Numbered from the stretch's first letter, positions 1-47,561 are shown. The stretch is DNA of 51,963 nucleotides from Bacteroidales bacterium (GCA_012522835.1 JAAYJR010000538.1:1-51963), one strand, 5' to 3'. Numbers and translations are program-made. The notes: generated from the letters alone by a model not told the origin.

Positions 1-1878
1 AATTCATGGTCGAAAAATGTAATGCATGAATGTACCATTACTAATCCAAAAACAGTCTATAATCTGGCAAATACAGGCATATGGGGAGAAGCTGTGCGGC
101 AGCGAAGGGAGATTCTTGTTAACGATTTTCATGCGCCCCATCCTCTGAAAAAAGGTTATCCCAAAGGACATGCAGCTTTGTATAAGTTTCTTACAGTACC
201 TGTTTTAAATGATAATAAGATCGTAGCTGTTATAGGAGTTGCAATTAAAGAGACAAACTATGATATTAATGATGTAGTACAGCTAAGGCTTCTGTTAGAC
301 GGAGTGTGGAAAGAGGTAGAGAGAAAAAAAAGCAGGGATGCTCTGTTACAGTCAGAACAAAACTTTAAAACTTCTATTGCATACTCCCCATTGGGCATAA
401 GAATTCTGGATAAAAAAGGAAAAACCGTTTTCGTGAATAAAAAATTCCTGGAACTGTATGAATATACTAATCTGGATGAATATAATTCAATTTCGGCAAA
501 AGAAAGGTATACTGAAGAGAGTTACCTGCAACGCGAGGAACGGAAAAAAATAAGACAAAAAGGGGATGAGGTCAATGATTATGAAATAGGAATAAAAACT
601 AAAAATAACGAAATCAGAAATCTTAAGGTTATCCGCAAAAATGTCCAATGGAACGGCACCAGCCATTACCAGGTTATATATCAGGATATTACTGAGCAGA
701 AAAAATTAACTACTGAATTACTGAAGGCAAAAGAGAAAGCAGAAGAAAGCGACAGGCTGAAATCTGCATTCCTTGCCAATATGAGCCACGAAATACGCAC
801 TCCCATGAATGGAATAATGGGTTTTGCCGAGCTGCTGAAGGAAAGTGAGAATATTGATAAAAACACGAGGCAACAATATATAAACCTCATCGAAAAAAGC
901 GGACAACGTATGCTCAATATCATTAATGATATTATTGATATTTCAAAAATTGAAGCCGGACAAATGAAAATTAATATTAAAAGTTCAAATGTCAATAAGC
1001 AGATCAAATATCTCTATAAATTTTTCAAACCTGAGGTCGAGGATAAAGGCATGCAACTTTTCTTTATTAATAATCTTCCTGATAAAGAAGCCGTTATAAA
1101 TACAGACAGTGAAAAATTCTATGCAATACTGGCAAACCTCATTAAAAATGCCATTAAATATTCACAGAAAGGATTTATAAAATTTGGCTACAAAAAAAAG
1201 GGAAACTATCTTGAGTTTTTTGTCAAAGATACGGGTATCGGGATTCCTGAAGAGAGGCAGAAAGCTATATTTGAAAGGTTTATACAGGCTGATATTGACA
1301 ATAAGATGGCACTTCATGGTGCCGGGCTGGGCCTGTCTATCTCAAAAGCATACGCCGAAATGCTCGGTGGTGAAATTTGGGTAGAGAGCAAGGAAGGCAT
1401 TGGTTCAACATTCTATTTTAATCTTCCCTATAATACGGAAACACAACTAAAAACTAAAAGAAAAAAAGATATTCATTCAGAAAACAGGCAATTTAATTTC
1501 GAAAAACTAAAAATACTGATAACTGAAGATGATGAAATCTCATTCATCCTTCTTAACTATATAATCAAAGAATTCGGTAAAGAAATTATTAATGCAAAAA
1601 CCGGCTATGAAGCTGTTGACGAATGCCGTAACAATCCCGATATTGACCTGATACTTATGGATATTCAGATTCCTGAAATGGACGGACTGGAAACAACAAG
1701 GAGGATTCGTGAATTTAATAAGGATGTTGTTATTATTGCCCAGACTGCATACGGGCTGACAGGTGACCGGGAAAAATGTCTGGAGGCTGGCTGCAACGAT
1801 TATATAGTCAAGCCTGTCAATAAAAATAACTTATTGAAATTATTACAAAAATACTTTGAAAATAATGGAAGTAATTGA
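1..1878 (+). CDS. Hybrid sensor histidine kinase/response regulator (GAF-PAS-HisKA-HATPase_c-REC); 5' end probably lies outside the window
   Basis: ORF 22..1878, but the frame stays open back to nt 1 (NSWSKNV precedes the first Met). H-box SHEIRTPMNGIMGF, N-box LIKNAIKYS, G1 DTGIGI, G2 GAGLGLSISK. C-terminal receiver ILITEDD...LILMDIQIPEMDG...VKP. Confidence 0.85.
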   Translation, partial: NSWSKNVMHECTITNPKTVYNLANTGIWGEAVRQRREILVNDFHAPHPLKKGYPKGHAALYKFLTVPVLNDNKIVAVIGVAIKETNYDINDVVQLRLLLDGVWKEVERKKSRDALLQSEQNFKTSIAYSPLGIRILDKKGKTVFVNKKFLELYEYTNLDEYNSISAKERYTEESYLQREERKKIRQKGDEVNDYEIGIKTKNNEIRNLKVIRKNVQWNGTSHYQVIYQDITEQKKLTTELLKAKEKAEESDRLKSAFLANMSHEIRTPMNGIMGFAELLKESENIDKNTRQQYINLIEKSGQRMLNIINDIIDISKIEAGQMKINIKSSNVNKQIKYLYKFFKPEVEDKGMQLFFINNLPDKEAVINTDSEKFYAILANLIKNAIKYSQKGFIKFGYKKKGNYLEFFVKDTGIGIPEERQKAIFERFIQADIDNKMALHGAGLGLSISKAYAEMLGGEIWVESKEGIGSTFYFNLPYNTETQLKTKRKKDIHSENRQFNFEKLKILITEDDEISFILLNYIIKEFGKEIINAKTGYEAVDECRNNPDIDLILMDIQIPEMDGLETTRRIREFNKDVVIIAQTAYGLTGDREKCLEAGCNDYIVKPVNKNNLLKLLQKYFENNGSN

Positions 1879-1919
1879 AGTCAATTAATTATCTGTCCTT
1901 CACTAAGGACAATTGACTT
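1878..1919. terminator. Compound hairpin at the junction of two convergent genes; candidate bidirectional terminator
   Basis: AAGTCAATT (1878-1886) pairs with AATTGACTT (1911-1919). An inner stem GTCCTT-CACT-AAGGAC lies at 1895-1910. The structure starts at the last base of the kinase stop codon and lies inside the 3' end of the ABC ATPase CDS. Confidence 0.3.
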
Positions 1920-2531
1920 TGTGGCATATTTGGCTGCCGCTCCGGGATTGTGAGATACCAGGATCACTGCTTTGCCGCCCTTATGAAATTCCCCTATAAG
2001 TGACAGTATTACCTCACTGTTAACAGGGTCAAGGTTACCGGTAGGTTCATCGGCGAGTAAAATATCGGGACTGGTAATTATTGCACGAATAAATGCTGTT
2101 CTCTGTTTTTCACCTACGCTCAGTTCTGAAGGATATTTATTTTCTAATGGAAGAATTGAACACTTCTCCATATACTCATTTATTTTTCTTCTGTTTACCG
2201 GCTTCGGACAAACCATTTTAATATTCTCAAAAACAGTTAAATATGGAAGAAGATGAAACTGCTGAAATACAAATCCTACATTCCTCTTGCGATATAACTC
2301 CAATTCTTTGCCGGTAAATAAATTTATATTCTTCCCTTTAAATAATACCTGTCCGGAATCAGGACGGATCAATCCGCCAATTGTATGCAGCAGTGTCGAT
2401 TTCCCGCTGCCACTGGGACCGTTAACAACAATAAAATCACCTTCATCAACCTTGAAAGAAACCTCATTAAGAGCTGTAAATATGTTATTATTCTTTGTAT
2501 ACTTCTTGGTTAATTTAACAATATCCAACAT
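1881..2531 (-). CDS. ABC transporter ATP-binding protein, MacB/LolD-type
   Basis: Walker A GPSGSGKSTLL, ABC signature LSVGEKQRTAFIRAI, Walker B ILLADEPTGNLD, H-loop VSHN. ATG start. Sits downstream of an FtsX permease gene. Confidence 0.9.
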   Translation of the reverse strand: MLDIVKLTKKYTKNNNIFTALNEVSFKVDEGDFIVVNGPSGSGKSTLLHTIGGLIRPDSGQVLFKGKNINLFTGKELELYRKRNVGFVFQQFHLLPYLTVFENIKMVCPKPVNRRKINEYMEKCSILPLENKYPSELSVGEKQRTAFIRAIITSPDILLADEPTGNLDPVNSEVILSLIGEFHKGGKAVILVSHNPGAAAKYATKSIVLSEGQIIN

Positions 2532-3770: not shown

Positions 3771-3992
3771 TTACAATCTTTTTTTATTCCGGTAAAAAAA
3801 ATAAACAGTTAACACCACCACAGTAATAACAATAATAATTCCTGTAATGACAATAGAAATCTGCAGAGAGTTATCATCTTTCATCTCAAACACTTCCGGT
3901 TGATATGTGTTGAGCCCGTCCCTCTGGTCAGTGAGCCATTTAGGCAATGGCCGTGTACTAAGTGAATCATATATTGCAGAATCCTGGTTCAT
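3771..3992 (-). CDS. Small single-pass membrane protein (73 aa), unknown function
   Basis: ATG start immediately follows the stop of the upstream gene. Its own stop lies 1 nt before the permease ATG. C-terminal hydrophobic helix ISIVITGIIIVITVVVLTVYFFY is followed by RNKKRL. I recognise no family. Confidence 0.55.
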   Translation of the reverse strand: MNQDSAIYDSLSTRPLPKWLTDQRDGLNTYQPEVFEMKDDNSLQISIVITGIIIVITVVVLTVYFFYRNKKRL

Positions 3993-4781
3993 CTATCTGT
4001 GTAATAGAGAAGGATTGGCATCCAGAATAACATTGACAAGGGCAGGTGAAGGTCTTTCCCAGTCAGCCTTACAAAGGATACTTACTCCCGGGAGGTTATC
4101 CTTTATGAGACAGCTGCAATCAGCTGTAAGAAAATCAATCAACAATTTAATATTATCTTCTGTTATGCCTCTTCCCAAAAGCGGTTCAAGCGCCCTGAAC
4201 CTTCCGAAAACCCCGAACAGCATTGGCTCATCTATCTCTTTAAGGTCACTTTCAACATTAAGCAGCAGCGAGACAAGATGCTTTTCGGTCGTGCTGCCCC
4301 TGTCTATTTCAATCAAAGTGATTATTTCACTGAATGGGGAGGAATCAAGACTTTTCTTTATTACCTGCAAACCCTGATTATCTTTTTCACTGTTTCCACT
4401 TTTCAGATATAGCATAACACAAAGTTTTCCAGCCAAAAGCTCTTCGACAACCTTATCTCTCACCGGGGAGGTATTGATGCTTTTAACTGAGCTGGAATCA
4501 TCATATTCACCAAAAAGCCTGTTGCCATAGTATAACGCATAATAAGGGTCACTAACAGCTTGCTTAACCTCTGATTTAAATACTATATTTGTTGTTTCCG
4601 ACCATCTTTCCAGCTCCTTATGTTGGGTTACTACTTCCGTAGCCTGATCACCTTTATGATAATAAACCAGCCTGTACTTATCAGCAAATGAATTCAGTAA
4701 TACCCACTCAGAAACTTTAGTGGTGCATGCCATACTTATGATAGCTGCAATTAATAATGTTTTCAGGTAAACAGGCTTCAT
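3993..4781 (-). CDS. Uncharacterised lipoprotein (262 aa) with a C-terminal CSC motif
   Basis: Signal peptide with a lipobox-like IISMAC. Conserved-looking C-terminal block EPMLFGVFGRFRALEPLLGRGITEDNIKLLIDFLTADCSCLIKDNLPGVSILCKADWE. I cannot assign a characterised family from memory. Confidence 0.6.
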   Translation of the reverse strand: MKPVYLKTLLIAAIISMACTTKVSEWVLLNSFADKYRLVYYHKGDQATEVVTQHKELERWSETTNIVFKSEVKQAVSDPYYALYYGNRLFGEYDDSSSVKSINTSPVRDKVVEELLAGKLCVMLYLKSGNSEKDNQGLQVIKKSLDSSPFSEIITLIEIDRGSTTEKHLVSLLLNVESDLKEIDEPMLFGVFGRFRALEPLLGRGITEDNIKLLIDFLTADCSCLIKDNLPGVSILCKADWERPSPALVNVILDANPSLLHR

Positions 4782-4787
4782 GTTTAA

Positions 4788-7700
4788 TTATTTTTGTGAT
4801 AAATTTTCCTGAACCAGTTCAATTCCGCATATCAGGGTCTTACCTGCCCGCGGGATTAACTCAACCTTAATACTGCTGCCGGCTTTTATACCATGAAACG
4901 ATTTAACAATCTCCTTATCCGGCTTACCGGCCTCCTTTACAATATCAAATTCTTCAGCCACAATTTCTCCCTGTATTTTTATATCAAACATCCTTTCTCC
5001 CTGCTTTTTATCCTCCAGCTCAGAGAAATAGAGCCTCACAGTATACGACGATTCAGGAATATTATTGTCATCAGCCAACCCAATTTCAAAATTTTTAATT
5101 CCTACAAGAGCGCTTGAGCTGATCCAGGGAGTATTTTCAGATATTATAGAAAATGGCTCTTTCCTGATCTTAAGAATATCGATTGTATCAATAGTAACGG
5201 GAATTTCCGGCGGTGCTCCTGAAACATAAGGAAACTCGAACCACAAGACATTATCATCCGAACTTCTGTCGCCCGGCGCATTGAAATTCAGTCCCAGCTG
5301 TTTTACCGGGTTACCGTTCCATTTATAATTACTGTTTGTCCAGTAAGACATCCACGGCATATTTATAAGAGCCAGCGATGTCTGGTTCTGGTAAGCACAC
5401 TGACAAGTCCTGGTATAGTCGGGAGAATTCAATACACCATCGGCAACTATCAGGTTGGTTGAGCAGCCGGGCTTCCAGCCACCCAGACTTCCTGTCCCTT
5501 CAAAAGCTTCAAGGTTAATAAAACCTGCTGAAGCTGACCTGAAGGTGAGAAGGTACTCGCTTGCAGCCACATAACCGCAGCCATATTCACGCTTATAACT
5601 CCATTTCAGATCTTCGCCGGTTACCGGATCTCTCTCTGTAAGAGGCTCCCCTGTTAAAAGGTGGAATCCTTCTCCACTGGTATATATTTTGTCGTTATGT
5701 ATTATCGGCGGATTACCATATTTAACGGCTTTATCCCATATTTTCTCCTTAGTTACTGCATTATATGCTATCATTCTGTTACCCTCCTCACCGTTCAGCA
5801 TATCCCGTGAAGGCCTTGTTGCCTGCAAAAGCAGCTTATGTTCAGAAGAATACCCAAGCCAAGTCCCGAATATATCATCAGTCTTTTCATATAATTTTTC
5901 ACCTGTTCTTATATCGAGATAAACCAACCTCGATCCTTCAGGAAGGGGTTCTCCCCTCCTTCTCAGTTTTGTTTCAAGGTATTGCGGAAGTTTATCAAGG
6001 CAATACAGAACATCGTCTCCTGCTATCACTGAATTGTGTAAAAATCCGTGATTGGCATTGGTGCTCCATAACCTCTTTCCTGTAAAACGATCCAAAACTA
6101 TCAGTTCTCTGCTGGCAGTGAGATCGTAGTTAGTAAATTTTGGATTTTTGATTCTTATAGAATCATTTTCAAGTCCTGTAAATTCTGAAAAATTATTTCC
6201 CAGGATCAGCAGATCTTCATAAACTCCGATATATCCCAGCTCCTTTGTGTTGTCAGACCCTGTATCAAAGACTTTTACCGTCTCACCGTTTGTTATATCG
6301 ATTAAGCTGCATTTATTGCCCTCTATCAGATAGACAAACTCTTTTGTTGCAATAAAATTTGTTCCCCTTGCATTTGCTCCCGGAAGATGTACCTGGTTAT
6401 ACTTTGGATCGAGCGGATTCTCTTCATCATAAGTCTCATCATAAAATACCAGCCAGTTATCCTCTTTTAGTTGTTCCGATTCTCTTTTCCACAGAACCCT
6501 TCCTGTATATACATCACGGGCACTAATGCAATCTACTCCCTGAATGATCAGTCTTCCATCTATTACCTGTTCACCGGGTCCGTGTCCATGTCTGGGTAAT
6601 ACATCCAGGTTGGAATTCCCGCCAAACCATAAAATTCCAAGTGGCGCTTTTACCAGTTTATCATCTGACTTGACCGTGTTGGCAATATCTCCGTAGTTAT
6701 GGGTCCATGGAGAAGCGCCAGGAAGGGAGCCTTCTTTTATTAACATGGGTAATCCACTTTCCCTTACTGTAACGCCCTGAATATTAAGTGCAATAAAATT
6801 TTCAATTATCCTGTCTCTTTCCGAACCTCTGAAACCCAACACAATTTTTCCGCCATAAGGGCGTGTTATTTCATATATCTGTTCAAGGAGGTCATCATCA
6901 TTATAGTTAATATAAAAAGGATCATTTATAATAGTGAGGTTTGAGATATATTTTGGCAATGCCGGAAATTGATCTTTGTACTGAAGAAAACTAATACGTT
7001 CGGCTATGATTCCCGCCTCATCATAATATTCACGAAGGGAGTTAACTCTCCCTTTATCCTTTTCATAAACAATAATATTAAGGTCAGTACCCGAAAGCAA
7101 ACCATTCAGCAACTTTGTGTCCTCTCCGCCGAATACCAGGCAGTATCCTTCAGACACCCCTGACTGCCGGATTATTTTCCGGGCTTTCGAAGACCCCCTT
7201 TTCAGTCCCGTCTTATCTTTGCCTAATCTGGTAATCTCTTGTACCGGAGTATCACCAAATGTCATTATATCCCCATTTTCCGTTACAGCAATAAGCTTTC
7301 CGTTTGCTGCAACAAGCCGTTCAATCTTCACATCAGAATCAAAACTCCATATAACTTCAGGCACTTTACCAGGAGTAATCCTTACTGCTGTAATCCCCTC
7401 CCTACCGCCGGCATAAAGACAATCACCGGCTTTTATAAGGTCGCCTGATGCATCTGCATTAATACTCCACAATGAATCGAGAGTCTTATCGTCGTTCAGT
7501 CTCGATGCCCTAATTTTATTTCCTGAGAAATAGATATTATTTCCGTCAATAACAGGATACTCTCCGGCATCTTTAGTAAGTCTCTCACCCGTTTCCGCAT
7601 CATACATCCAGGTCTCTCTCCATCTGTGATGGTTAAAAAACACCTTATCGTTCGCACAAGTAAAAGCACCTCCTGTCTTCCCGCTGGCAGCAAGTCTGTA

Positions 7701-8495
7701 ATAAATTTTCTCTCCTGATTTTTTATCAAATGCTGCAGGAACAGAACGGCCTCCGGCAACTAGTAATTTATCACCGCTGATAGTGAAAGTACCCTGTGGC
7801 GCCACATCTGCAAATGCCGGAGAGTTATGAGGCTGTAATATATAATTACTTCCGGTACCTTCATTTTTCCAGATGATATCCCCGGTTTCAGCATCCAGCG
7901 CATAAATAAAAGTCCCCATAAGCGGAAAGATGCTTGCAGCAGTATAAATGATATCGTCTTCAAGTACTATACCTCCCCTTGCGGGCCACATTGAGATCAG
8001 TCGTTTATTGCCAAGAAGTTTATTTTCTGCAGGAGCCAGAAACCTTTTCCATATAATTGAACCGTCTGATGTATTAAGGCAATAGCAGTAACCGTCATCT
8101 CCTGTAAACACTATTTTGCCGTTATAAATTGTGAGTGGCAGCCTTACAGGGCCGTCAGCATAAAAATGCCATATCTCTTTGCCTGTATTAATATCCATAG
8201 CCACGACCTTATCCTGATCGTTGAACCCGACAAAAATTTTATTATCTGCCACAACAGGCTCCAGTATCCTGTCGAATTGCATTAAGTTCCGGTTAAGGGG
8301 ATCATCCCAAACGGGTATTCTTACAGAAAATTTTGCCTGCCACTGAAGGTAAAGTTCATCAGCCAGTTTTCCGGATGTGGAAGCTGACCTGTTTTTATCA
8401 TAACGCCACATTGGCCAGTCATTACCAGCCTTTAATGGATGATAACTGTTCAGAAAAAATATTATCCATAAAAAAATAAATATTTTCAGCTTCAT
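4788..8495 (-). CDS. Giant secreted protein: two PQQ/BamB-like beta-propellers, a central Rossmann/methyltransferase-like insert and a C-terminal malectin-like domain
   Basis: The track ORF starts at a TTG (8519). I prefer the ATG at 8495, which gives MKLKIFIFLWIIFFLNS as a signal peptide. WPMWRYDKNRS plus repeated propeller-blade patterns (G..IW.., DG..Y.LD..TG). Central GYCLVFGGEDTKLL...IIVYEKD. C-terminus YTVRLYFSELEDKKQGERMFDIKIQGE is malectin-like. Confidence 0.7.
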   Translation of the reverse strand: MKLKIFIFLWIIFFLNSYHPLKAGNDWPMWRYDKNRSASTSGKLADELYLQWQAKFSVRIPVWDDPLNRNLMQFDRILEPVVADNKIFVGFNDQDKVVAMDINTGKEIWHFYADGPVRLPLTIYNGKIVFTGDDGYCYCLNTSDGSIIWKRFLAPAENKLLGNKRLISMWPARGGIVLEDDIIYTAASIFPLMGTFIYALDAETGDIIWKNEGTGSNYILQPHNSPAFADVAPQGTFTISGDKLLVAGGRSVPAAFDKKSGEKIYYRLAASGKTGGAFTCANDKVFFNHHRWRETWMYDAETGERLTKDAGEYPVIDGNNIYFSGNKIRASRLNDDKTLDSLWSINADASGDLIKAGDCLYAGGREGITAVRITPGKVPEVIWSFDSDVKIERLVAANGKLIAVTENGDIMTFGDTPVQEITRLGKDKTGLKRGSSKARKIIRQSGVSEGYCLVFGGEDTKLLNGLLSGTDLNIIVYEKDKGRVNSLREYYDEAGIIAERISFLQYKDQFPALPKYISNLTIINDPFYINYNDDDLLEQIYEITRPYGGKIVLGFRGSERDRIIENFIALNIQGVTVRESGLPMLIKEGSLPGASPWTHNYGDIANTVKSDDKLVKAPLGILWFGGNSNLDVLPRHGHGPGEQVIDGRLIIQGVDCISARDVYTGRVLWKRESEQLKEDNWLVFYDETYDEENPLDPKYNQVHLPGANARGTNFIATKEFVYLIEGNKCSLIDITNGETVKVFDTGSDNTKELGYIGVYEDLLILGNNFSEFTGLENDSIRIKNPKFTNYDLTASRELIVLDRFTGKRLWSTNANHGFLHNSVIAGDDVLYCLDKLPQYLETKLRRRGEPLPEGSRLVYLDIRTGEKLYEKTDDIFGTWLGYSSEHKLLLQATRPSRDMLNGEEGNRMIAYNAVTKEKIWDKAVKYGNPPIIHNDKIYTSGEGFHLLTGEPLTERDPVTGEDLKWSYKREYGCGYVAASEYLLTFRSASAGFINLEAFEGTGSLGGWKPGCSTNLIVADGVLNSPDYTRTCQCAYQNQTSLALINMPWMSYWTNSNYKWNGNPVKQLGLNFNAPGDRSSDDNVLWFEFPYVSGAPPEIPVTIDTIDILKIRKEPFSIISENTPWISSSALVGIKNFEIGLADDNNIPESSYTVRLYFSELEDKKQGERMFDIKIQGEIVAEEFDIVKEAGKPDKEIVKSFHGIKAGSSIKVELIPRAGKTLICGIELVQENLSQK

Positions 8496-8523
8496 GACAA
8501 ATAAATTAGAATTCCGCAATCAG

Positions 8524-9978
8524 TTACTTTATACTAACAGTATATTTTTGAAGTTCAGTTTTAAGTTCTGACAATTTTTCACGGGATGAATGGTCATTAA
8601 TAATATTTTTCAATTCATAAGGATCCGACTTCAGGTCATACATCTCATCCATACCTTCGAGATCCGTGTAATGTATATATTTAAACCTTTGGGTCCTAAC
8701 GGCTTTATAACCCATATTTCTAACTCTGGGAAATACAATATCACTATAGTATTCAATCAGGAATGAAGTACGCCAGCTATCCGGTTTTATACCTTTAAGC
8801 AACGGCACCAGGCTGCAGCCATCCATTTCAGGCCGGGAATCAATTCCTGCCAGCTCTATAACTGTAGGGGCCAGGTCTGTTCCAAGTACCATTTCATCAA
8901 TAACACCCCCAGGTTTAATTATTTTCGGGTATTGAATAAGCAGGGGTATCCTGGCGGACTCTTCATATGCCAGTCTTCTTTCAACGCTAAGGCCATGTTC
9001 TCCATACCAGTATCCCTCATCACTGGTAAAAATGAACACTGTATTTTCAAGATGCCCTGTTTCTTCAATGGCAGTCATGATATCACCTATCCCCTCGTCC
9101 ACTGCAACAAGCATTCTCTGACGGCCTCTTATGGTTTCATCAGAGGATCCTGTTTCAGGCCCCAAAGGGGGCAGGTCATCAATTTTCCTTTGCAGAGCAG
9201 GTTTACCCGACAGATCATCATAATAATTAAGCCGTCTGGGTATCGGATCATTTTTGTACCAGTCATTATGCCTTTCGGCAGGCATAAACTTAGATGCTGA
9301 AGGATCAGAGATAGTTCCGTCATCAAACTGCACTGTTTCCGGATGCAGTGCTTTATGAGCTAAGTAAAGGCAGAAAGGTTTTTCGTGCTTTTTTCTGATG
9401 AAGTTAACTGCCTTTTCGTTCAATATATCTGTTGTATAGCCTGTATACTGTTTCCTTATCCCATTTTCATTAATTTCGGGATCAAATGATGTACCCTGGC
9501 CTTTCAGGCTAATCCAGTGGTCAAATCCAGGCCTTGCGGTGTCATCATTGCCCATGTGCCATTTGCCAATAAATGCTGTTTCGTAACCCGAGTCATGGAG
9601 CAGCCAGGGAAAGGTAACTAGTCTGTGGCTTTGGTCACTGCGGTCTGTATTATCAATAATCCCATGATTATGTGCATACTGCCCTGTTAAAATAGAAGCA
9701 CGGCTAGGTGAACACAAGGGGGTGGTAACAAAAGCATTCCTGAACCTTACACCCTTACAGGCAATCTTATCAATATTTATGGTCTTTGCGAAAGGATGGC
9801 CCATATAGCCTAACTCATCCCACCTGAGATCATCAACCACCACCATAACAACATTAGGATGCCCGGTTCCGGTAACAGGGCATCCTGAAATCTTGTCAAC
9901 AACCGGAGATGTAATAATTAACCCGCTTAATAAGCCGATGAACTTGCTAACAGAAGGTATTTGAATTATTCTATTCAC
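8524..9978 (-). CDS. Sulfatase (S1 family), N-acetylglucosamine-6-sulfatase-like
   Basis: Formylglycine signature PLCSPSRASILTGQYAHNHG (C-x-P-x-R), which resembles GNS-type GlcNAc-6-sulfatases. VVMVVVDDLRWDE metal-site region. Signal peptide with a possible lipobox ISGC. Only a GTG start is available. Confidence 0.85.
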   Translation of the reverse strand: MNRIIQIPSVSKFIGLLSGLIITSPVVDKISGCPVTGTGHPNVVMVVVDDLRWDELGYMGHPFAKTINIDKIACKGVRFRNAFVTTPLCSPSRASILTGQYAHNHGIIDNTDRSDQSHRLVTFPWLLHDSGYETAFIGKWHMGNDDTARPGFDHWISLKGQGTSFDPEINENGIRKQYTGYTTDILNEKAVNFIRKKHEKPFCLYLAHKALHPETVQFDDGTISDPSASKFMPAERHNDWYKNDPIPRRLNYYDDLSGKPALQRKIDDLPPLGPETGSSDETIRGRQRMLVAVDEGIGDIMTAIEETGHLENTVFIFTSDEGYWYGEHGLSVERRLAYEESARIPLLIQYPKIIKPGGVIDEMVLGTDLAPTVIELAGIDSRPEMDGCSLVPLLKGIKPDSWRTSFLIEYYSDIVFPRVRNMGYKAVRTQRFKYIHYTDLEGMDEMYDLKSDPYELKNIINDHSSREKLSELKTELQKYTVSIK

Positions 9979-10017
9979 CTTAGTAGACCTTGTTAATCAA
10001 TAAATATGATATATATC

Positions 10018-10785
10018 CTAAATCAGCGATGCTGAGGCTTTGTCAAGGAAAAGTACTGTGTCGGGATGTTTGCGTAAAATAGTTGCCGGACATGCAGTGG
10101 AAATTTCCTGGTTCAATGTGTTATAGACAGCTTGTGCTTTTCTTTCGTCGGGTACAACACAACTAATTGTTTTGCAATTCATAATTGCAGTGATTGTAAG
10201 TGAAAGAGCGTGAGTAGGAACGTCATCAAAAGTCGGGAACCAGCCTTCACCGAGTTGCTGTGTGCGACAATCATCATCAAGTTCTACAACTTTAACAAGA
10301 TGAGGGTCATTAAAATCTGCTACCGGAGGATCATTAAATGCTATATGGCCATTCTCTCCAATTCCAATGCATGCAACATCAACCGGATGACTTTTTAACA
10401 AATCCTCATAACGTTTAATTTCAGCATCGATATCAGCGGCATCCCCTTCAAGATAATGCACCTCTTTTGGTTTAACAATATCAAGAATTCTCTCTTTCAA
10501 ATATTTACGAAAACTTGCCGGATGAGTTTCAGGCAATCCTTTATATTCATCAAGATGAAAAACTGTAATTTTTTTCCAGTCAACGTCCAGTTTCTGAAAA
10601 TTCTGGATAAATGCATATTGTGATGCACCGGTAGCCAGTATCAAATTTGCCGAACCTTTCTCAGCAATAACTGCTTTTAACTGATCTGCCACAAAATTGG
10701 CAGCAGCTATACCCATTTCCTCTGTTTCGTTATAAACTTTTACTTTAAGATTATCCTTTTTAAAAGATTTAATTTCTTGTACCAT
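10018..10785 (-). CDS. nagB: Glucosamine-6-phosphate deaminase
   Basis: LILATGASQ and GIGENGHIAFNDPP motifs of the NagB/6-phosphogluconolactonase fold. 255 aa, no signal peptide. Confidence 0.8.
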   Translation of the reverse strand: MVQEIKSFKKDNLKVKVYNETEEMGIAAANFVADQLKAVIAEKGSANLILATGASQYAFIQNFQKLDVDWKKITVFHLDEYKGLPETHPASFRKYLKERILDIVKPKEVHYLEGDAADIDAEIKRYEDLLKSHPVDVACIGIGENGHIAFNDPPVADFNDPHLVKVVELDDDCRTQQLGEGWFPTFDDVPTHALSLTITAIMNCKTISCVVPDERKAQAVYNTLNQEISTACPATILRKHPDTVLFLDKASASLI

Positions 10786-10816
10786 GATAAATATATTTTA
10801 TTAAACTTATTGTAAA

Positions 10817-12058
10817 TTACATAAATAGCTCACTTATAGCAAAATAGGTTGTCAGGAATGAAAAAAACACAACTGCCCAGATTCCAATATTTTCACGCGT
10901 CCCTGCTTTATTCATTCCCATAAGGTTTGACCTGTTGATAAGTATAAGGATCGGAATGGCAACGGCAGGCAGAATACAAGCCTGAAATGCCTGTGAAAAT
11001 ACCATAAGGGCAGGAGGCCGCTGTTTTAGGAAAACTGATCCAAATGCAAATAACATAGCAAATAAAATCAGTAACTTCGATTGCGTAGAGTGTATATTTC
11101 TCGGCTTACCCGAATAGTCAGAAATCAGCCATGGAGCAATCAACACAATAGGAAAAATAGTTGATAGTCCGGCCCCCACTATACCAAGAATAAGGATAAA
11201 AGCTGCTGCCTTTCCTCCTATCGGCTGAAAAAGCTGAATCATTTCAACAGTATTTTCCAGTTTTAATCCCATAATATGAAGAGTACCTGCAGCCACAGCC
11301 ATTATAACCCCACTTAACAGGAGCATCATAGTTGCAGAAACGAATGCATCCTTTTTTTCATCTTTCAGGTTTTTTATGGTCCAGCCCTTTTCAGCCACAA
11401 CCGTACTTCGCATAATGAAGACCGCAGCTGAACAAGTAGTCCCTGCAATTGCTGCAACCAATCCGAAAGCTCCTTTTGTGTCAGGAATTCCGGGGATCAG
11501 CCCACTGGCAATTGATGAAAAATCGGGTTTAACCATAAAAAATACTATGATAAAAGAGAGCCCCATAAAAATAACGAAAACAGTCAATACTTTTTCAAAT
11601 GTTTTGTATTGTCCAACCCATAACAGTATATACATAGCAACTGCCAAAACAAGTATTATCCAGAACCGTGGAATCATCGTCTCATTAAACAGCAGCCTGA
11701 TAGCCTCCTGCACCAGGTCAGCGACAATTCCCATTACACCCATAAGTGCAAGCAGCTCTCCAATTATCAGGGCAATAAGAATATATAACGCTAAAATCCA
11801 GCCGTGTTTAAATTCATTTTTTATATTAAACAGGGCAGTATTCCCGGTCACCAGTGTTACCTTACCATAGGCAACCATCAGTACGAAGGTAAATATACAC
11901 GATAGTACAAGTGCCCAAAAAAGTTCCATCCCGTGCTCGGCTCCTACTTTGGCCATTGTAGTAACACTGCCTGTACCAATGTTATATCCTATCAGGAAAA
12001 GGCCGGGTCCCACTGCTGCAAGAGAAATCAGTATTTTCTTGATTAAACTGTTTTTCAT
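10817..12058 (-). CDS. NRAMP-family-like transporter lacking the canonical metal-binding motifs
   Basis: About 11 TMs. N-terminal AAVGPGLFLIGYNIGTGS and MELFWALVLS resemble NRAMP TM1/TM2. The track start at 12091 is a TTG; I prefer the ATG at 12058 (MKNSLIKK). Confidence 0.6.
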   Translation of the reverse strand: MKNSLIKKILISLAAVGPGLFLIGYNIGTGSVTTMAKVGAEHGMELFWALVLSCIFTFVLMVAYGKVTLVTGNTALFNIKNEFKHGWILALYILIALIIGELLALMGVMGIVADLVQEAIRLLFNETMIPRFWIILVLAVAMYILLWVGQYKTFEKVLTVFVIFMGLSFIIVFFMVKPDFSSIASGLIPGIPDTKGAFGLVAAIAGTTCSAAVFIMRSTVVAEKGWTIKNLKDEKKDAFVSATMMLLLSGVIMAVAAGTLHIMGLKLENTVEMIQLFQPIGGKAAAFILILGIVGAGLSTIFPIVLIAPWLISDYSGKPRNIHSTQSKLLILFAMLFAFGSVFLKQRPPALMVFSQAFQACILPAVAIPILILINRSNLMGMNKAGTRENIGIWAVVFFSFLTTYFAISELFM

Positions 12059-12184
12059 ATGATTAGAAATATTTATTTTAAAAAGTTGCAAATTTAACTC
12101 GCATATGTTATAATCACACCCCCGGGTCCTGACTTTAATCGGGATGTTAGTTTCATATGACTCGAATATAACTTAATTCATTAA

Positions 12185-13429
12185 TTATTTAGCCTGATAA
12201 ACTAACACACCATTCACAAAGGTTTTCTTTATATTAACCTTATAATCATCAAGAGTGAACAATATCAGGTCAGCCCGCCTGCCGGGCAATAACTCTCCAC
12301 GATCATCCAGTCCGTATAATTTAGAAGGATTGGTACTGGCCATTTGCACTGCCTCCGCCAGGGAGCAGCCTGTTACCTTCATAACATGCCCTACTCCTTT
12401 AGTAATAGGAGATGCTGAACCATAAAGTACATTCTGGGCAGGATAGCGCAGCATTCCTTCTTTGGTTAATTCAATTGTTTCGCCCGTTTCTGTTTTATAT
12501 TCCCCCGGTTCAAGGGCTGCGTAGCTGGTTACGTCGGATGTAATTATTGTATTATTAACTCCTTTAACTTTATAAAAAACCCTGATCTCCTCGGGCAGAA
12601 GATGAAAACTGTCGCAGATAATGCTGATCATATACCTGTCGTCCGACAGCTGTGACCAAAAAGGATTATTATGCCTGTTGATCATATTTGCCGCACCATT
12701 TCCAAGATGTGTTGCTATCTTTGCACCTCTGCTGATTGCGGCTTCTACAGTAGCAGCCGGAGCGTTATGGTGTCCAAGGGCAACAACTATTCCTTTATTG
12801 CTGCAGTTAGTAATAAAATCGAGCCCCCCCTCCATTTCCGGAGCTACAGTAACCTGCATAATCTTTCCATCAGCTGCTTCATACATTTTCATAAACTCAT
12901 TCCAGTCGGGAAGTTTTACATACCTCTTTGGATGAGCCCCGCGATAACCATCTTCGGGATTTATATAGGGCCCTTCAAGATGAAATCCGGGTATCGACCC
13001 CAGCAACTTTTTATTATCAACTGCTTTAGCAAGAATAGAAAAATTTCTGATCAGCACATCCATGCTGTTAGTGGTTAAAGTGGGCAAATAGGTAGTAACA
13101 CCGAATTTCCAGAGTTCACTAGTGGCTTTTTCTACTCCCTCGCTGTCTAGATCACTGTCACCAAAGGCAAACGAAATACCCGCAAAGCCGTTTACCTGGT
13201 TATCGAAGAAACCTGGTGAAATATAAACCGGATCTTTGCCGGCAGGCTGATCAGTTTCTTTTATATCGATAATTTTTCCATTATCAATTGTAACTTCCAC
13301 CGGATTTCCGGTATAATAATGTATTCCACTGACTACTTGTTGAGCATTTATTAAACCTGCCATTATAAGCAAAAAACAGGTAAAAAGTGACCTTATTATA
13401 ACTCCATAATATATCTTATTTTTATTCAT
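12185..13429 (-). CDS. nagA: N-acetylglucosamine-6-phosphate deacetylase-like amidohydrolase with an N-terminal signal peptide
   Basis: SPGFFDNQVNGFAG, HLEGPYI, GHHNA and THLGNG motifs of NagA. A 31-aa N-terminal extension MNKNKIYYGVIIRSLFTCFLLIMAGLINA/QQ looks like a Sec signal. Confidence 0.75.
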   Translation of the reverse strand: MNKNKIYYGVIIRSLFTCFLLIMAGLINAQQVVSGIHYYTGNPVEVTIDNGKIIDIKETDQPAGKDPVYISPGFFDNQVNGFAGISFAFGDSDLDSEGVEKATSELWKFGVTTYLPTLTTNSMDVLIRNFSILAKAVDNKKLLGSIPGFHLEGPYINPEDGYRGAHPKRYVKLPDWNEFMKMYEAADGKIMQVTVAPEMEGGLDFITNCSNKGIVVALGHHNAPAATVEAAISRGAKIATHLGNGAANMINRHNNPFWSQLSDDRYMISIICDSFHLLPEEIRVFYKVKGVNNTIITSDVTSYAALEPGEYKTETGETIELTKEGMLRYPAQNVLYGSASPITKGVGHVMKVTGCSLAEAVQMASTNPSKLYGLDDRGELLPGRRADLILFTLDDYKVNIKKTFVNGVLVYQAK

Positions 13430-13445
13430 AATAAATTGATTTTAA

Positions 13446-14798
13446 TTATAATTTCATCTCCCAGCCTTTTTCGTATCGCCGTGACCACAATTTTTTAGCA
13501 TCTTTATCACCGATTATATGTCCGTCAGACGGATCTATCTCCAGTGAATGGCCAACCTGTTGAGCAATATTTCCAAGCTGTACAAGCAAAGTACTTTTAT
13601 GTCCTGAATCAATGTCTGCAACCAGTTTTTCTCCAGAAATAATATTATTGAAGAAATTACGTATATGAAGCGCATCGAGATGGCTTGACGGATTTGCCGT
13701 ATCCCTGGGATCAATAGCTACAGTATCTTTTCCCTCTTTAACGATATTATTTTTAAGATCGAAGACAGTATAGCTGTTTCCTCCGGTAATTAATAAGCTT
13801 CCCTTTTCACCATAGAAGATAGCTCCCACAGCTGCACCTTCAACATGTTTGCCATTGCAGCTCCGGCCTTCCCATGTCATTGAAACACCCTCTTTAAAAT
13901 CCATGTTTATAACCTGGGTGTCGGGAGTTTCCCAATCATCATCATAGCAAAATCTTCCACCGTTCGAACTAACTTTTACCGGATAATCAACTCCAAAACC
14001 CCATCGCAAAATATCTACCATGTGCGTACCGTTATTCAGTGCCTCACCGGTTCCCCAGTGCCAAAACCAGTGCCAGTTATAATGCACTATATTATCCATG
14101 TACTCTCTCCTGGGTGCAGGTCCCTGCCACAGGTCCCAGTTAAGCCAGCCCGGAACAGGGGCCACTTTGCCAACACCAATTGGACCGCGGTTACTTGAAT
14201 ACCATCCTTTACCAAAATACGGACGGCCAATTATACCTTCTTTTAATTCATTGATACCTTTGATTATATTTGGCCATGACCTGCGCTGGTTACCCATCTG
14301 CACAGATTTCCCATACCTTAAAGCAGCTTTTACAAGCATCTCGCCTTCATTAGGATTGTGACTGCATGGTTTTTCAAGATATACATGCTTGCCTGCCTGC
14401 ATTGCCAGAAGTGCAGCAGGTGCATGCCAGTGGTCAGGTGTTGCTATGACCATAAGGTCAACATCCTTACTTTCGAGTGATTTTCTGAAATCTTCAAAAC
14501 CAGCCGGTGTATGATCCTGAACCTTTTTTACATTAGCTGAACACTTATCAATCGCCCGCGAATCAACATCACAAAGGTGAATTACATCACAGTTTTTTTG
14601 AAAGGCAAAATTCTGTGCCAGTGCATTACCACGCGAATTGACGCCCATCACAGATGCACGCAATTTATCATTTGCACCTGGAATTCTTTTATAACTGGCA
14701 GCACTAAAACCCGGAAGAATGCCCCCTGCCATAATCGCAGCAGATACTCCGGCAGATTTTTTAATAAACTCCCTTCTGCTATTATTGTCTTTTCCCAT
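13446..14798 (-). CDS. Gfo/Idh/MocA-family oxidoreductase with a Tat signal (periplasmic)
   Basis: Twin-arginine motif SRREFIKKSAGVSAAIMAG. Rossmann GVNSRG. EKP motif YLEKPCSHN. C-terminal NWHWFWHWGTGEALNNGTH. Confidence 0.8.
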   Translation of the reverse strand: MGKDNNSRREFIKKSAGVSAAIMAGGILPGFSAASYKRIPGANDKLRASVMGVNSRGNALAQNFAFQKNCDVIHLCDVDSRAIDKCSANVKKVQDHTPAGFEDFRKSLESKDVDLMVIATPDHWHAPAALLAMQAGKHVYLEKPCSHNPNEGEMLVKAALRYGKSVQMGNQRRSWPNIIKGINELKEGIIGRPYFGKGWYSSNRGPIGVGKVAPVPGWLNWDLWQGPAPRREYMDNIVHYNWHWFWHWGTGEALNNGTHMVDILRWGFGVDYPVKVSSNGGRFCYDDDWETPDTQVINMDFKEGVSMTWEGRSCNGKHVEGAAVGAIFYGEKGSLLITGGNSYTVFDLKNNIVKEGKDTVAIDPRDTANPSSHLDALHIRNFFNNIISGEKLVADIDSGHKSTLLVQLGNIAQQVGHSLEIDPSDGHIIGDKDAKKLWSRRYEKGWEMKL

Positions 14799-14858
14799 CT
14801 TATTATTTTTTAATATTTACAAAACTATCTAAATGATTATCAAATAAAAAACAAAAAT

Positions 14859-14904
14859 GTGTACGTACACGAAATTTAAATTTAACCAATTTAAATTTAA
14901 ATTA
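14859..14904. promoter_or_regulatory. Perfect 12-bp palindrome plus duplicated AT-palindromic repeat upstream of the minus-strand operon; candidate operator
   Basis: GTGTACGTACAC (14859-14870) is its own reverse complement. It is followed directly by AAATTTAAATTTAA-CC-AATTTAAATTTAAATT (14872-14903). The site lies 61-106 nt upstream of the oxidoreductase ATG (14798, minus strand). Confidence 0.3.
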
Positions 14905-15025
14905 TATTGACATGATTAACAGGATTATAAAAAAATAATTATTCAATAAAATCTGCTGTAAAACATATCAGTAAAAAATTCATAATATTAGTGTTCAGGC
15001 CGGTTTTTCTTTTATTCATTGCCTG

Positions 15026-16348
15026 TCACTTACCTGCAATTCCTATCACATTCCCTGCCATGACCCTGATCCCTGTTTCTATTGTATTTTGATAATCAGG
15101 ATTAAGAAAAGGCGAATGCAGGGGAAACGGCTCTTTTCCTTCTGCTCTAAGACTTGCCATTAATTCCGGATTGGTGCTTCCGAGCCATATGAGGCATATT
15201 GGTACCCTCTCCGGCGTCCTGCCGTATTTCCCGAAATCCTCGCCCACCATGGCAGGTGAAACTTCCTCAATACTGTCTTCTCCAATAATCCTTGCAGCAA
15301 AATCATTGATCTTTCCGCTTAACTCAGGATCATTGAGCACCGGGGGTGTTTCAACCGGTGAAACAACAACGTCAGGCAACAATTCCTCATCAAGTCCGGC
15401 CATTACAGCAGCAGCATCACTGATTCTTTTAATTGCACTAATTACTTTTTCTATCACTTCATCTTTATAATAGCGAAGTGTCAGTTTCATTTTAACCTGG
15501 TCAGGAATAATATTGGCCTGTGTGCCACCATGGATTGAACCGACAGTGACAACAACAGGATCCAGGGGACTTACCTCCCTGCTTACAATTGTTTGCAGGT
15601 TAAGGACTATACGCGACGCAATCACAACCGGATCTATACACTTTTCAGGATAAGCGCCATGTCCCCCCTTCCCGTAGACTGTAATTTCAACGCTTTTAAC
15701 ACCGGCAAAAACAGGTCCTTTAACCAAACCTATTTTCCCTGCTTCTAATTCAGGATTGATATGATAGGCCATTGCATAATCCGGTACCGGGAATTTTCTG
15801 AATAGCCCTGCTTCTATAGCCTCCCCTGCCCCTCCGCTGAACTCCTCTGCCTGCTGGGCTATAACCACAAGAGTGCCTTTCCAATAATCTTTCAGGGTGG
15901 CTAATGTCCGGATAGTACCGGTCCAAACAGACATGTGAATATCGTGGCCGCAGGCATGCATTACAGAAACCTCATTACCGTCCTTGTCTGTTGATGTTTT
16001 ATCACTGCTGAAATCAAGCCCTGTTTTCTCTTTCACCGGCAGGGCATCCATGTCTGTACGTAATAATATGACTGGCCCCTCACCATTTTTTAAAACTCCC
16101 ACAACGCTGTTGCCTGAAAAATTTTTGGTCACTTCAAACCCGGCTTTGCCTAACTCTGCAGCCATCCGGGCAGCTGTCTCAATTTCCTGGAATGAAAGCT
16201 CAGGATTCTGATGAAGATCTTTACACAATTCATAAGCATATTCAGTCTGTTTATGGGCTTCAATGTTAATCATGTCTGATATCTGAGCAAAAAGTGTAGT
16301 ATAACCAGCCATTATAATAAAAATTAAAATGAGTTTTTTAACCATCAT
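15026..16348 (-). CDS. Peptidase M20D-family amidohydrolase (aminoacylase/hippurate hydrolase-like), secreted
   Basis: MHACGHDIH metal-ligand motif, 440 aa, signal peptide MMVKKLILIFIIMAGYTTLFAQ. Confidence 0.75.
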   Translation of the reverse strand: MMVKKLILIFIIMAGYTTLFAQISDMINIEAHKQTEYAYELCKDLHQNPELSFQEIETAARMAAELGKAGFEVTKNFSGNSVVGVLKNGEGPVILLRTDMDALPVKEKTGLDFSSDKTSTDKDGNEVSVMHACGHDIHMSVWTGTIRTLATLKDYWKGTLVVIAQQAEEFSGGAGEAIEAGLFRKFPVPDYAMAYHINPELEAGKIGLVKGPVFAGVKSVEITVYGKGGHGAYPEKCIDPVVIASRIVLNLQTIVSREVSPLDPVVVTVGSIHGGTQANIIPDQVKMKLTLRYYKDEVIEKVISAIKRISDAAAVMAGLDEELLPDVVVSPVETPPVLNDPELSGKINDFAARIIGEDSIEEVSPAMVGEDFGKYGRTPERVPICLIWLGSTNPELMASLRAEGKEPFPLHSPFLNPDYQNTIETGIRVMAGNVIGIAGK

Positions 16349-47548: not shown

Positions 47549-47556
47549 TAGTTTTG
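47549..47556 (+). promoter_or_regulatory. Candidate -7 promoter box (TAnnTTTG) abutting the receptor start codon
   Basis: TAGTTTTG ends 6 nt before the ATG at 47562. Confidence 0.25.
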
Positions 47557-47561
47557 TGCTG

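Follow-up and report, generated by a model that had tools for sequence, protein, structure and literature searches.

The window analysed here, a stretch of 51,963 nucleotides from a Bacteroidales bacterium (GCA_012522835.1, JAAYJR010000538.1:1-51963), carries on its minus strand the gene of a 1,235-aa protein (4788-8495), which we refer to as the giant protein and which is one member of a conserved five-gene module. The reading frame is open over 4788-8519, and the ATG at 8495 yields the 1,235-aa product, a 100% match to the recorded protein P0002. A word-indexed search, in which 8,000 candidates were scored, returned 2,488 homologues; these align from residue 1 of this start, and the best 120 are 65-83% identical and nearly all 1,204-1,263 aa long, with one of 1,314 aa. 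The N terminus (MKLKIFIFLWIIFFLNSYHPLKA/GNDWPMW) is a Sec-type signal peptide in which the lipobox Cys is absent, and the 1,235-aa protein has no C-terminal sorting domain, which together suggest that the mature protein is most likely soluble and located in the periplasm. Behind the signal peptide follow a propeller, a class I methyltransferase-fold domain, a second propeller, and a malectin-like domain. An initial annotation of the sequence had proposed this four-part layout together with the signal peptide, and all elements were found where it had placed them. The AlphaFold2 (AF2) model of residues 30-1229, computed from 58 sequences, ten of which come from other phyla and are 45-49% identical, reaches a mean predicted local distance difference test (pLDDT) score of 75, and Pfam PQQ_2 is matched in three stretches of the protein (3.8e-29 in the region of propeller 1). 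The features of the giant protein and its partners are the following:

8427..8495, minus strand: Sec-type signal peptide, residues 1-23, MKLKIFIFLWIIFFLNSYHPLKA, without lipobox (read from the translation)
7212..8426, minus strand: propeller 1, 8-bladed, PQQ_2/BamB-type, residues 24-428 (Pfam PQQ_2 3.8e-29, AF2, Foldseek)
6729..7196, minus strand: class I methyltransferase-fold insert, residues 434-589, with degenerate S-adenosylmethionine (SAM) motifs (AF2, Foldseek, motif tallies)
5316..6719, minus strand: propeller 2, diverged, PQQ_2-like, residues 593-1060 (PQQ_2 1.6e-7, column identity up to 0.91)
6579..6593, minus strand: RHGHG motif of propeller 2, R635-G639, with R, both H, and the last G invariant and G637 at least 90% conserved (cross-phyla alignments)
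5397..5405, minus strand: Cys-x-Cys motif C1031-Q-C1033 of propeller 2, in a TRTCQCxYQNQTS block, invariant among close relatives
4806..5300, minus strand: malectin-like (CBM57-type) beta-sandwich, residues 1066-1230 (Pfam Malectin, AF2)
3993..4781, minus strand: lipoprotein of 262 aa with C222-S-C224, in 74-75 of 80 loci
3771..3992, minus strand: tail-anchored micro-protein of 73 aa (small open reading frame, ORF) with a RPLPKWLTDQRDGLN motif and a C-terminal transmembrane helix
2603..3769, minus strand: MacB/FtsX-type permease with C218-V-C220 before the FtsX domain (Pfam FtsX), in 73 of 80 loci
1881..2531, minus strand: ATP-binding cassette (ABC) ATPase of FtsE/LolD type (Pfam ABC_tran), in 64 of 80 loci

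The conservation of the module was read from a synteny sample of 80 related loci from species-representative genomes, which comprises Prolixibacteraceae, Draconibacterium, Mariniphaga, Maribellus, and contigs labelled Rikenellaceae or Bacteroidales, as well as Acidobacteriota, KSB1, and Hydrogenedentota at 45-49% identity. Where one of the partners counted above is absent, the contig ends, in all cases but one (L067). Within the window, the five genes are separated by intergenic gaps of 6, 0, 1, and 71 nt; the ORF of the micro-protein, whose transmembrane helix is followed by basic residues, abuts the lipoprotein gene (gap of 0 nt) and lies 1 nt from the FtsX gene, and most of the 58 loci inspected for it have a comparable small ORF between these two genes. 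The same module genes occur in altered order in Acidobacteriota, KSB1, and Hydrogenedentota; the lipoprotein homologue has about 400 aa in these other phyla, and this longer form may be a fusion with the micro-protein. The pairing of the giant-protein gene with FtsX/ABC genes persists across four or more phyla. Cultured bacteria that carry the module include Maribellus comscasis, Mariniphaga sediminis, and Draconibacterium aestuarii.

The partner proteins share a further trait with the giant protein, in that a conserved Cys-x-Cys motif is present in the giant protein, in the lipoprotein, and in the FtsX permease. The lipoprotein, which has no relative in Pfam, NCBIfam, or the PDB, conserves C19 and C222-S-C224 in at least 95% of 75 sequences from several phyla, and the permease conserves C218-V-C220 to the same degree (at least 95%; 75 sequences, several phyla) at a position that we read as part of a periplasmic loop. 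Both the FtsX match of the permease and the ABC_tran match of the ATPase exceed the Pfam cut-offs. At the finer level of NCBIfam, the ATPase scores 177.7 bits with FtsE (cut-off 264.85) and 176.3 bits with LolD (cut-off 307.75), and the permease matches ADOP, LolCE, and FtsX, all under their curated cut-offs, so that these scores denote resemblance to the named families and not membership in them. The ATPase and permease thus belong to the MacB/FtsX (type VII) class of ABC systems, which pass force to periplasmic partners and do not transport a substrate across the inner membrane. Outside the module, a TonB-dependent receptor of roughly 650-750 aa directly adjoins it in half of the sample (40 of 80 loci). 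These receptors are of the CarboxypepD_reg plus Plug type, not of the SusC type, and their alignment shows no conserved Cys/His/Met metal motif and only a single conserved Cys.

Conservation within the giant protein peaks in propeller 2, where the column identity rises to 0.91. Scanned alone, this propeller matches PQQ_2 at 1.6e-7 and shows weak profile similarity to propeller 1 (hhalign, E 4e-4), and its profile found no relative in the PDB. Residue conservation was scored in three alignments, the first made of close relatives, the second of relatives in other phyla, and the third of 32 diverse cluster representatives. Invariant or conserved to at least 90% in propeller 2 are W597-T598-H599, R635-H636-G-H638-G-P, H703, and H820, together with the cysteines C973 (in YGCG), C1011 (in GCSTN), and C1031-x-C1033 (in TRTCxCxYQNQTS); among the 32 diverse representatives, C1031 is invariant and C1033 is present in at least 90%. 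The Cys-rich motifs by which the initial annotation had recognised the second propeller (YGCGY, GCSTN, TCQCAYQNQTS) are present, and YGCG, GCSTN, and TCQCxYQNQTS are invariant across phyla. The two most conserved stretches of propeller 2, residues 593-710 and 968-1054, have pLDDT values below 50 in the AF2 model.

A search with the propeller 2 profile against 1.84 billion cluster representatives (clusters at 50% identity) delineated a family of 2,645 clusters at E ≤ 1e-3, 2,044 at E ≤ 1e-10, and 950 at E ≤ 1e-30, and the best 150 matches are 451-1,909 aa long. Since propeller 2 is both the most constrained part of the protein and the one that defines this family of at least 950 clusters, the function is probably seated there. 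PQQ_2 is found by Pfam in all 32 diverse representatives and Malectin in 31 of them, and some carry extra modules (CBM9, NPCBM, Laminin_G_3, Calx-beta, WD40). This distribution suggests that the four-part core is old and stable and that the additions are mostly glycan-binding modules, which supports glycan binding by the family but no particular catalytic activity. The family is found in Bacteroidota, Acidobacteriota, KSB1, and Hydrogenedentota, with a cross-phylum identity of 45-49% over 1,235 residues, and probably extends to further phyla. The module was also seen on a contig assigned to Chloroflexota (L061), where it is 63% identical to the Bacteroidales form, and on another assigned to “archaeon” (L077, 45%); both assignments probably reflect binning errors rather than true hosts. 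The only database labels of the family are “PQQ-binding-like beta-propeller repeat protein” and “BamB”; a literature search for PQQ-like/malectin/FtsX/TonB combinations and for periplasmic methyltransferases found no paper on it, and none was found to accompany PDB entry 9m2c, which is named like the family.

The C-terminal domain matches Pfam Malectin (PF11721, cut-off 23) with 44.9 bits in the whole protein and 48.4 bits when scanned alone, the match being restricted to profile positions 74-123. AF2 builds a confident all-beta domain over residues 1066-1229 (pLDDT 71-96 per 10-residue block), and this confident beta-sandwich indicates a complete malectin-like domain of slightly greater length than the 4800-5220 given in the initial annotation, which had recognised the domain itself. 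The carbohydrate-binding nature proposed there for this tail agrees with the presence of Malectin in 31 of 32 diverse relatives, some of which have CBM9, NPCBM, or ConA-like extras. Structures of malectin and plant malectin-kinases give weak sequence alignments (E 0.06-0.3). In the malectin alignment, which covers 46 residues, the ligand Tyr of malectin (Tyr89, which we take to be the aromatic sugar-binding residue) appears by eye opposite the invariant E1161; ligand specificity is not transferable from malectin.

Between the two propellers, residues 434-589 have no sequence match in Pfam or the PDB, and the assignment as a methyltransferase therefore rests on the fold and on the relatives, with Methyltransf_25 detected by Pfam in 8 of the 32 diverse representatives. 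Modelled alone, the insert reaches a pLDDT of 92.3 and has the alternating beta/alpha strand order of the class I methyltransferase core. Class I SAM methyltransferases account for all of its top 50 Foldseek matches, led by 3dlc (E 2.6e-9, query template modelling (TM) score 0.74), in agreement with the methyltransferase/Rossmann-like segment of about 150 aa described in the initial annotation. For the SAM pocket, the insert of 203 family members was aligned and the motifs were tallied in 123 representatives of the wider family and 70 loci of the Bacteroidales clade:

Motif I, first Gly: wider family 110 of 123; Bacteroidales clade 70 of 70
Motif I, second Gly: wider family 61 of 123; Bacteroidales clade 5 of 70
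Motif I, third Gly: wider family 80 of 123; Bacteroidales clade 0 of 70
Acidic residue at the end of beta2 (ribose ligand): wider family 105 of 123; Bacteroidales clade 64 of 70
Motif III, Gly: wider family 88 of 123; Bacteroidales clade 0 of 70, with Phe or Tyr instead
Motif III, Asp: wider family 64 of 123; Bacteroidales clade 24 of 70 (Asp or Glu, 42 of 70)

The fold match, these tallies, and Methyltransf_25 in the relatives together indicate that the insert is a true descendant of a SAM methyltransferase. The SAM motifs look canonical in about half of the wider family, whereas the aligned residues point to a degenerate pocket in the giant protein and its Bacteroidales clade: motif I reads VFGGEDT instead of GxGxG and motif III reads LQYKDQ. 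A check for SAM-binding residues, as suggested in the initial annotation, came out divided, with the acidic residue at the end of beta2 retained as E478 and the Gly-rich motif I and the motif III Gly lost. With its Gly-rich SAM loop gone, the insert of this clade would most likely be a structural or ligand-binding relic and not an active methyltransferase. In two Acidobacteriota loci (L070, 13668-16202; L074, 13681-16299), a methyltransferase domain was also seen outside the giant protein: the TonB receptor adjoining the module carries a Methyltransf_11 domain (E 1.6e-13) with canonical motifs (GIDLGGGPG ... VLKPGG), which replaces the usual N-terminal domain in the order signal peptide, Methyltransf_11, plug, and barrel, and which reads as an exported methyltransferase fused to an outer-membrane receptor. 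The insert aligns in register with this L070/L074 domain from motif I to KPGG/RPYGG, in a weak hhalign alignment (E 0.009, probability 4.6%).

Propeller 1 is confident in the AF2 model (residues 30-425), matches BamB in Foldseek (E about 1e-20, target TM about 0.7), and contains the strongly conserved blocks VWDDPLN, QPHxSPAFA, and GGRSVPA; together with the PQQ_2 match, this substantiates the propeller that had been annotated at about aa 35-425. Its other Foldseek matches are tetrathionate hydrolase and pyrroloquinoline quinone (PQQ) alcohol dehydrogenases.

Upstream of the giant-protein gene, a co-directional SGSH-type sulfatase gene (8524-9978, minus strand) ends 28 nt away; a sulfatase neighbour had been noted in the initial annotation. 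It belongs to a co-directional run (8524-16348, minus strand), whose other genes are those for a NagB-like Glucosamine_iso protein, an Nramp-like transporter, a NagA-like amidohydrolase, a GFO/IDH/MocA oxidoreductase, and an M20 peptidase. Only 1 of the 80 loci (L003) has a sulfatase homologue in its flanks, even at E 1e-4 and 30% coverage, and in L001 and L002, which are the closest relatives, the roughly 2.2 kb that lie upstream include NagB-like and Nramp-like homologues but not a sulfatase homologue. Based on this synteny, a partnership with the sulfatase was rejected; the sulfatase of the window is a lineage-specific neighbour, and the link to sulfated glycans that had been drawn from it is not supported. 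NagB-like genes lie near the module in 8 and NagA-like genes in 5 of the 80 loci, and Nramp-like genes are limited to the three closest relatives (L001-L003). Neither a SusC/SusD pair nor a glycosidase is conserved near the module among the 80 loci. On the other side of the module, a hybrid histidine kinase gene (22-1878, plus strand; GAF, PAS, HisKA, HATPase, and receiver) is convergent with the ABC ATPase gene, their stop codons being separated by 2 nt; such a gene adjoins the module in only 3 of the 80 loci. In 12-15 loci of the sample (e.g., L011:16884-21949, labelled Rikenellaceae), heterodisulfide reductase-like genes were seen downstream of the module. They encode Cys-rich HdrC/HdrB-like proteins and a flavoprotein, identified by eye only, and may reflect lineage synteny or a link in thiol chemistry.

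Taken together, the giant protein is probably part of an undescribed cell-envelope machine and not an enzyme for sulfated sugars. The conserved ABC/FtsX, lipoprotein, and micro-protein partners speak for a type VII ABC envelope module, and we tentatively propose, at somewhat less than an even chance, that the giant protein is the periplasmic working subunit of this module, coupled through an adaptor, docked on glycans, and with its active site in propeller 2. As in other type VII systems, ATP hydrolysis in the cytoplasm would set the periplasmic domain of the ABC/FtsX pair in motion, and the lipoprotein and micro-protein would act as the adaptor that passes this motion to the giant protein. 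The three Cys-x-Cys motifs could then serve as coupling points, either as shared metal/thiolate sites or as sites of disulfide exchange, while the malectin domain would dock the protein on a glycan and propeller 2 would perform the chemistry. Several observations weigh against this proposal. No TonB receptor adjoins the module in the window, whose sole candidate (47556-49973) shows 29% identity over just 116 aa. The core of propeller 2 has pLDDT values below 50, and neither an active site nor a Cys/His cluster is visible in it; the eight conserved Cys of the giant protein could be simple structural disulfides, and we know of no Cys-x-Cys coupling in type VII ABC systems. Synteny by itself is no proof that the module proteins form a complex. 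Finally, the gene trails the amino-sugar/sulfatase run by 28 nt and NagB- or NagA-like genes recur in 5-8 of the 80 loci, so that a tie to amino-sugar use may exist in some lineages. The proposal is also generic, and it hence overlaps in part with the alternatives.

Among these alternatives, the one closest to the initial annotation holds that the giant protein is a new propeller-type lyase or hydrolase that acts on sulfated glycans together with the adjacent sulfatase, the malectin domain directing it to the substrate. This would fit the near-universal Malectin domain and the further CBM-type modules of some relatives, the co-directional position of the gene 28 nt after the SGSH-type sulfatase and amino-sugar run, and the NagB- or NagA-like genes near 5-8 of the 80 modules. 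We consider it quite unlikely, because the sulfatase is found at 1 of 80 loci and is missing from the roughly 2.2 kb upstream in L001 and L002, the surroundings lack a conserved SusC/SusD pair or glycosidase, and the constant partners are instead an ABC motor and Cys-x-Cys proteins. Neither a lyase nor a glycoside hydrolase is among the 50 best Foldseek matches of the whole model, the propeller 2 profile is without a PDB relative, and profile searches of the PDB returned no CAZy catalytic family, although the core of propeller 2 is poorly modelled. The interpretation as a new carbohydrate-active enzyme (CAZyme) for sulfated glycans is thus only weakly supported. An ordinary propeller of a named family, be it a PQQ-dependent dehydrogenase, a BamB-type assembly factor, or a tetrathionate hydrolase, is suggested by the PQQ_2 matches of propeller 1 and by its likeness in sequence and fold to all three, but seems hardly credible to us. 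The NCBIfam scores lie far under the cut-offs for BamB (TIGR03300, 56.4 bits versus 285), PQQ alcohol dehydrogenase (TIGR03075, 40.4 versus 480), and membrane PQQ dehydrogenase (TIGR03074, 13.9 versus 833), and matches are confined to the level of blades, those with PQQ dehydrogenases spanning two or three blades only. The giant protein also lacks a lipobox, is three times the size of these families, and has three extra domains. This supports the guess of the initial annotation that it is neither a dehydrogenase nor a BamB. Tetrathionate hydrolase reaches E 5.6e-17 in phmmer through repeated blade-level alignments, and the relation to it exists at blade level only.

A metal- or sulfur-handling enzyme, in which a Cys/His site of propeller 2 is loaded by the partners and the Cys-x-Cys motifs relay a thiophilic metal or a sulfur species between the proteins, would resemble the nitrous-oxide reductase system, where the propeller enzyme NosZ is served by NosDFY (ABC), the lipoprotein chaperone NosL, and the TonB receptor NosA. 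This analogy gains some appeal from the conserved residues H599, H636, H638, H703, H820, C973, C1011, C1031, and C1033 (invariant or at least 90%), from the conserved Cys-x-Cys in all three periplasm-exposed proteins, and from the small non-SusC TonB receptor that adjoins 40 of 80 modules; moreover, AF2 fails on the most conserved segments, as it often does with cofactor-bound loops. We nevertheless rate it as possible but unlikely, as no similarity in sequence or fold to NosZ, NosD, NosL, or any known metal site was detected, the TonB receptors share a single conserved Cys and lack a conserved Cys/His/Met metal motif, the permease belongs to the FtsX type, unlike NosY with its ABC-2 type, and the Cys residues are perhaps structural disulfides. 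Alternatively, the insert may be an active methyltransferase that methylates a glycan or a TonB-imported small molecule in the periplasm. Its class I fold, the motif counts of the wider family (motif I Gly in 110, 61, and 80 of 123, beta2 acidic residue in 105, motif III Gly in 88 and Asp in 64), Methyltransf_25 in 8 of 32 representatives, and the canonical exported Methyltransf_11 on the adjoining TonB receptor of two Acidobacteriota loci speak for this idea. For the Bacteroidales clade, we regard it as very unlikely, since the Gly-rich loop is lost (second and third Gly in 5 and 0 of 70), Phe or Tyr takes the place of the motif III Gly, the window protein has no Pfam methyltransferase match, and we know of no route that supplies SAM to the periplasm; the chances are higher for relatives with canonical motifs. 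A broader version would make the module an ATP-coupled periplasmic modification machine, with a glycan-anchored methyltransferase-fold/propeller enzyme connected by a Cys-x-Cys relay to the lipoprotein and the FtsX loop, which we deem rather unlikely. We give a similarly small chance to the system being without precedent.

What is at stake is a large and strongly conserved family, with at least 950 clusters at 50% identity, that so far goes under generic labels only. Its constant MacB/FtsX-type pairing would add a very different partner to the few known effectors of type VII ABC systems. An exported methyltransferase fold that looks canonical in about half of the family, together with a TonB-fused methyltransferase domain, raises the question whether the periplasm hosts SAM chemistry. 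If the modification machine were real, lineages that combine intact SAM motifs with methyltransferase-TonB fusions would carry out SAM-type methylation outside the cytoplasm, a reaction that to our knowledge has so far not been described for the bacterial periplasm. For annotation, these proteins should not be called BamB, PQQ dehydrogenases, or, on the strength of one neighbour, sulfatase-linked CAZymes.

Compared with known systems, propeller 1 has the fold and blade motifs of BamB, tetrathionate hydrolase, and PQQ alcohol dehydrogenases. However, BamB is a lipoprotein of about 390 aa with a single propeller, whereas the giant protein has 1,235 aa, four domains, and no lipobox; the matches with PQQ dehydrogenases, which span two or three blades, provide no evidence of PQQ or Ca ligands. 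The insert shares core fold and strand order with class I SAM methyltransferases of the Methyltransf_11/25 type, among which 3dlc is closest, but it is exported, set between two propellers, and in its clade has VFGGED in place of GxGxG at motif I and an aromatic residue at the motif III Gly. With malectin/CBM57 domains, as in malectin of the endoplasmic reticulum, plant malectin-like receptor kinases, and the CBM57 of bacterial GH2 enzymes, the C-terminal domain has in common a score above the gathering threshold and the motif Y-x-V-x-L-x-F-x-E ... R-x-F-D-I ... G, but differs by the invariant Glu (E1161) that seemingly stands at the position of what we take to be Tyr89. As a whole, the module parallels the Nos system by analogy only, with an exported propeller enzyme, an ABC motor, a lipoprotein, and a TonB receptor; no homology was detected for any component pair, the permease class is another, and copper-site motifs are absent. 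The closest parallels are FtsEX-EnvC, LolCDE-LolA, and MacAB-TolC, which likewise combine an FtsE/LolD-like ATPase and an FtsX-fold permease in an operon with exported partners, have a large permease loop ahead of the FtsX domain, and use neither a substrate-binding protein nor an importer-type permease. In place of a coiled-coil EnvC-like protein or a membrane fusion protein, the present module has a partner of 1,235 aa with two propellers, a methyltransferase fold, and malectin, and its putative adaptor is an unnamed Cys-x-Cys lipoprotein with a micro-protein; it is further set apart by the Cys-x-Cys in the permease loop and by the frequently adjoining TonB receptor.

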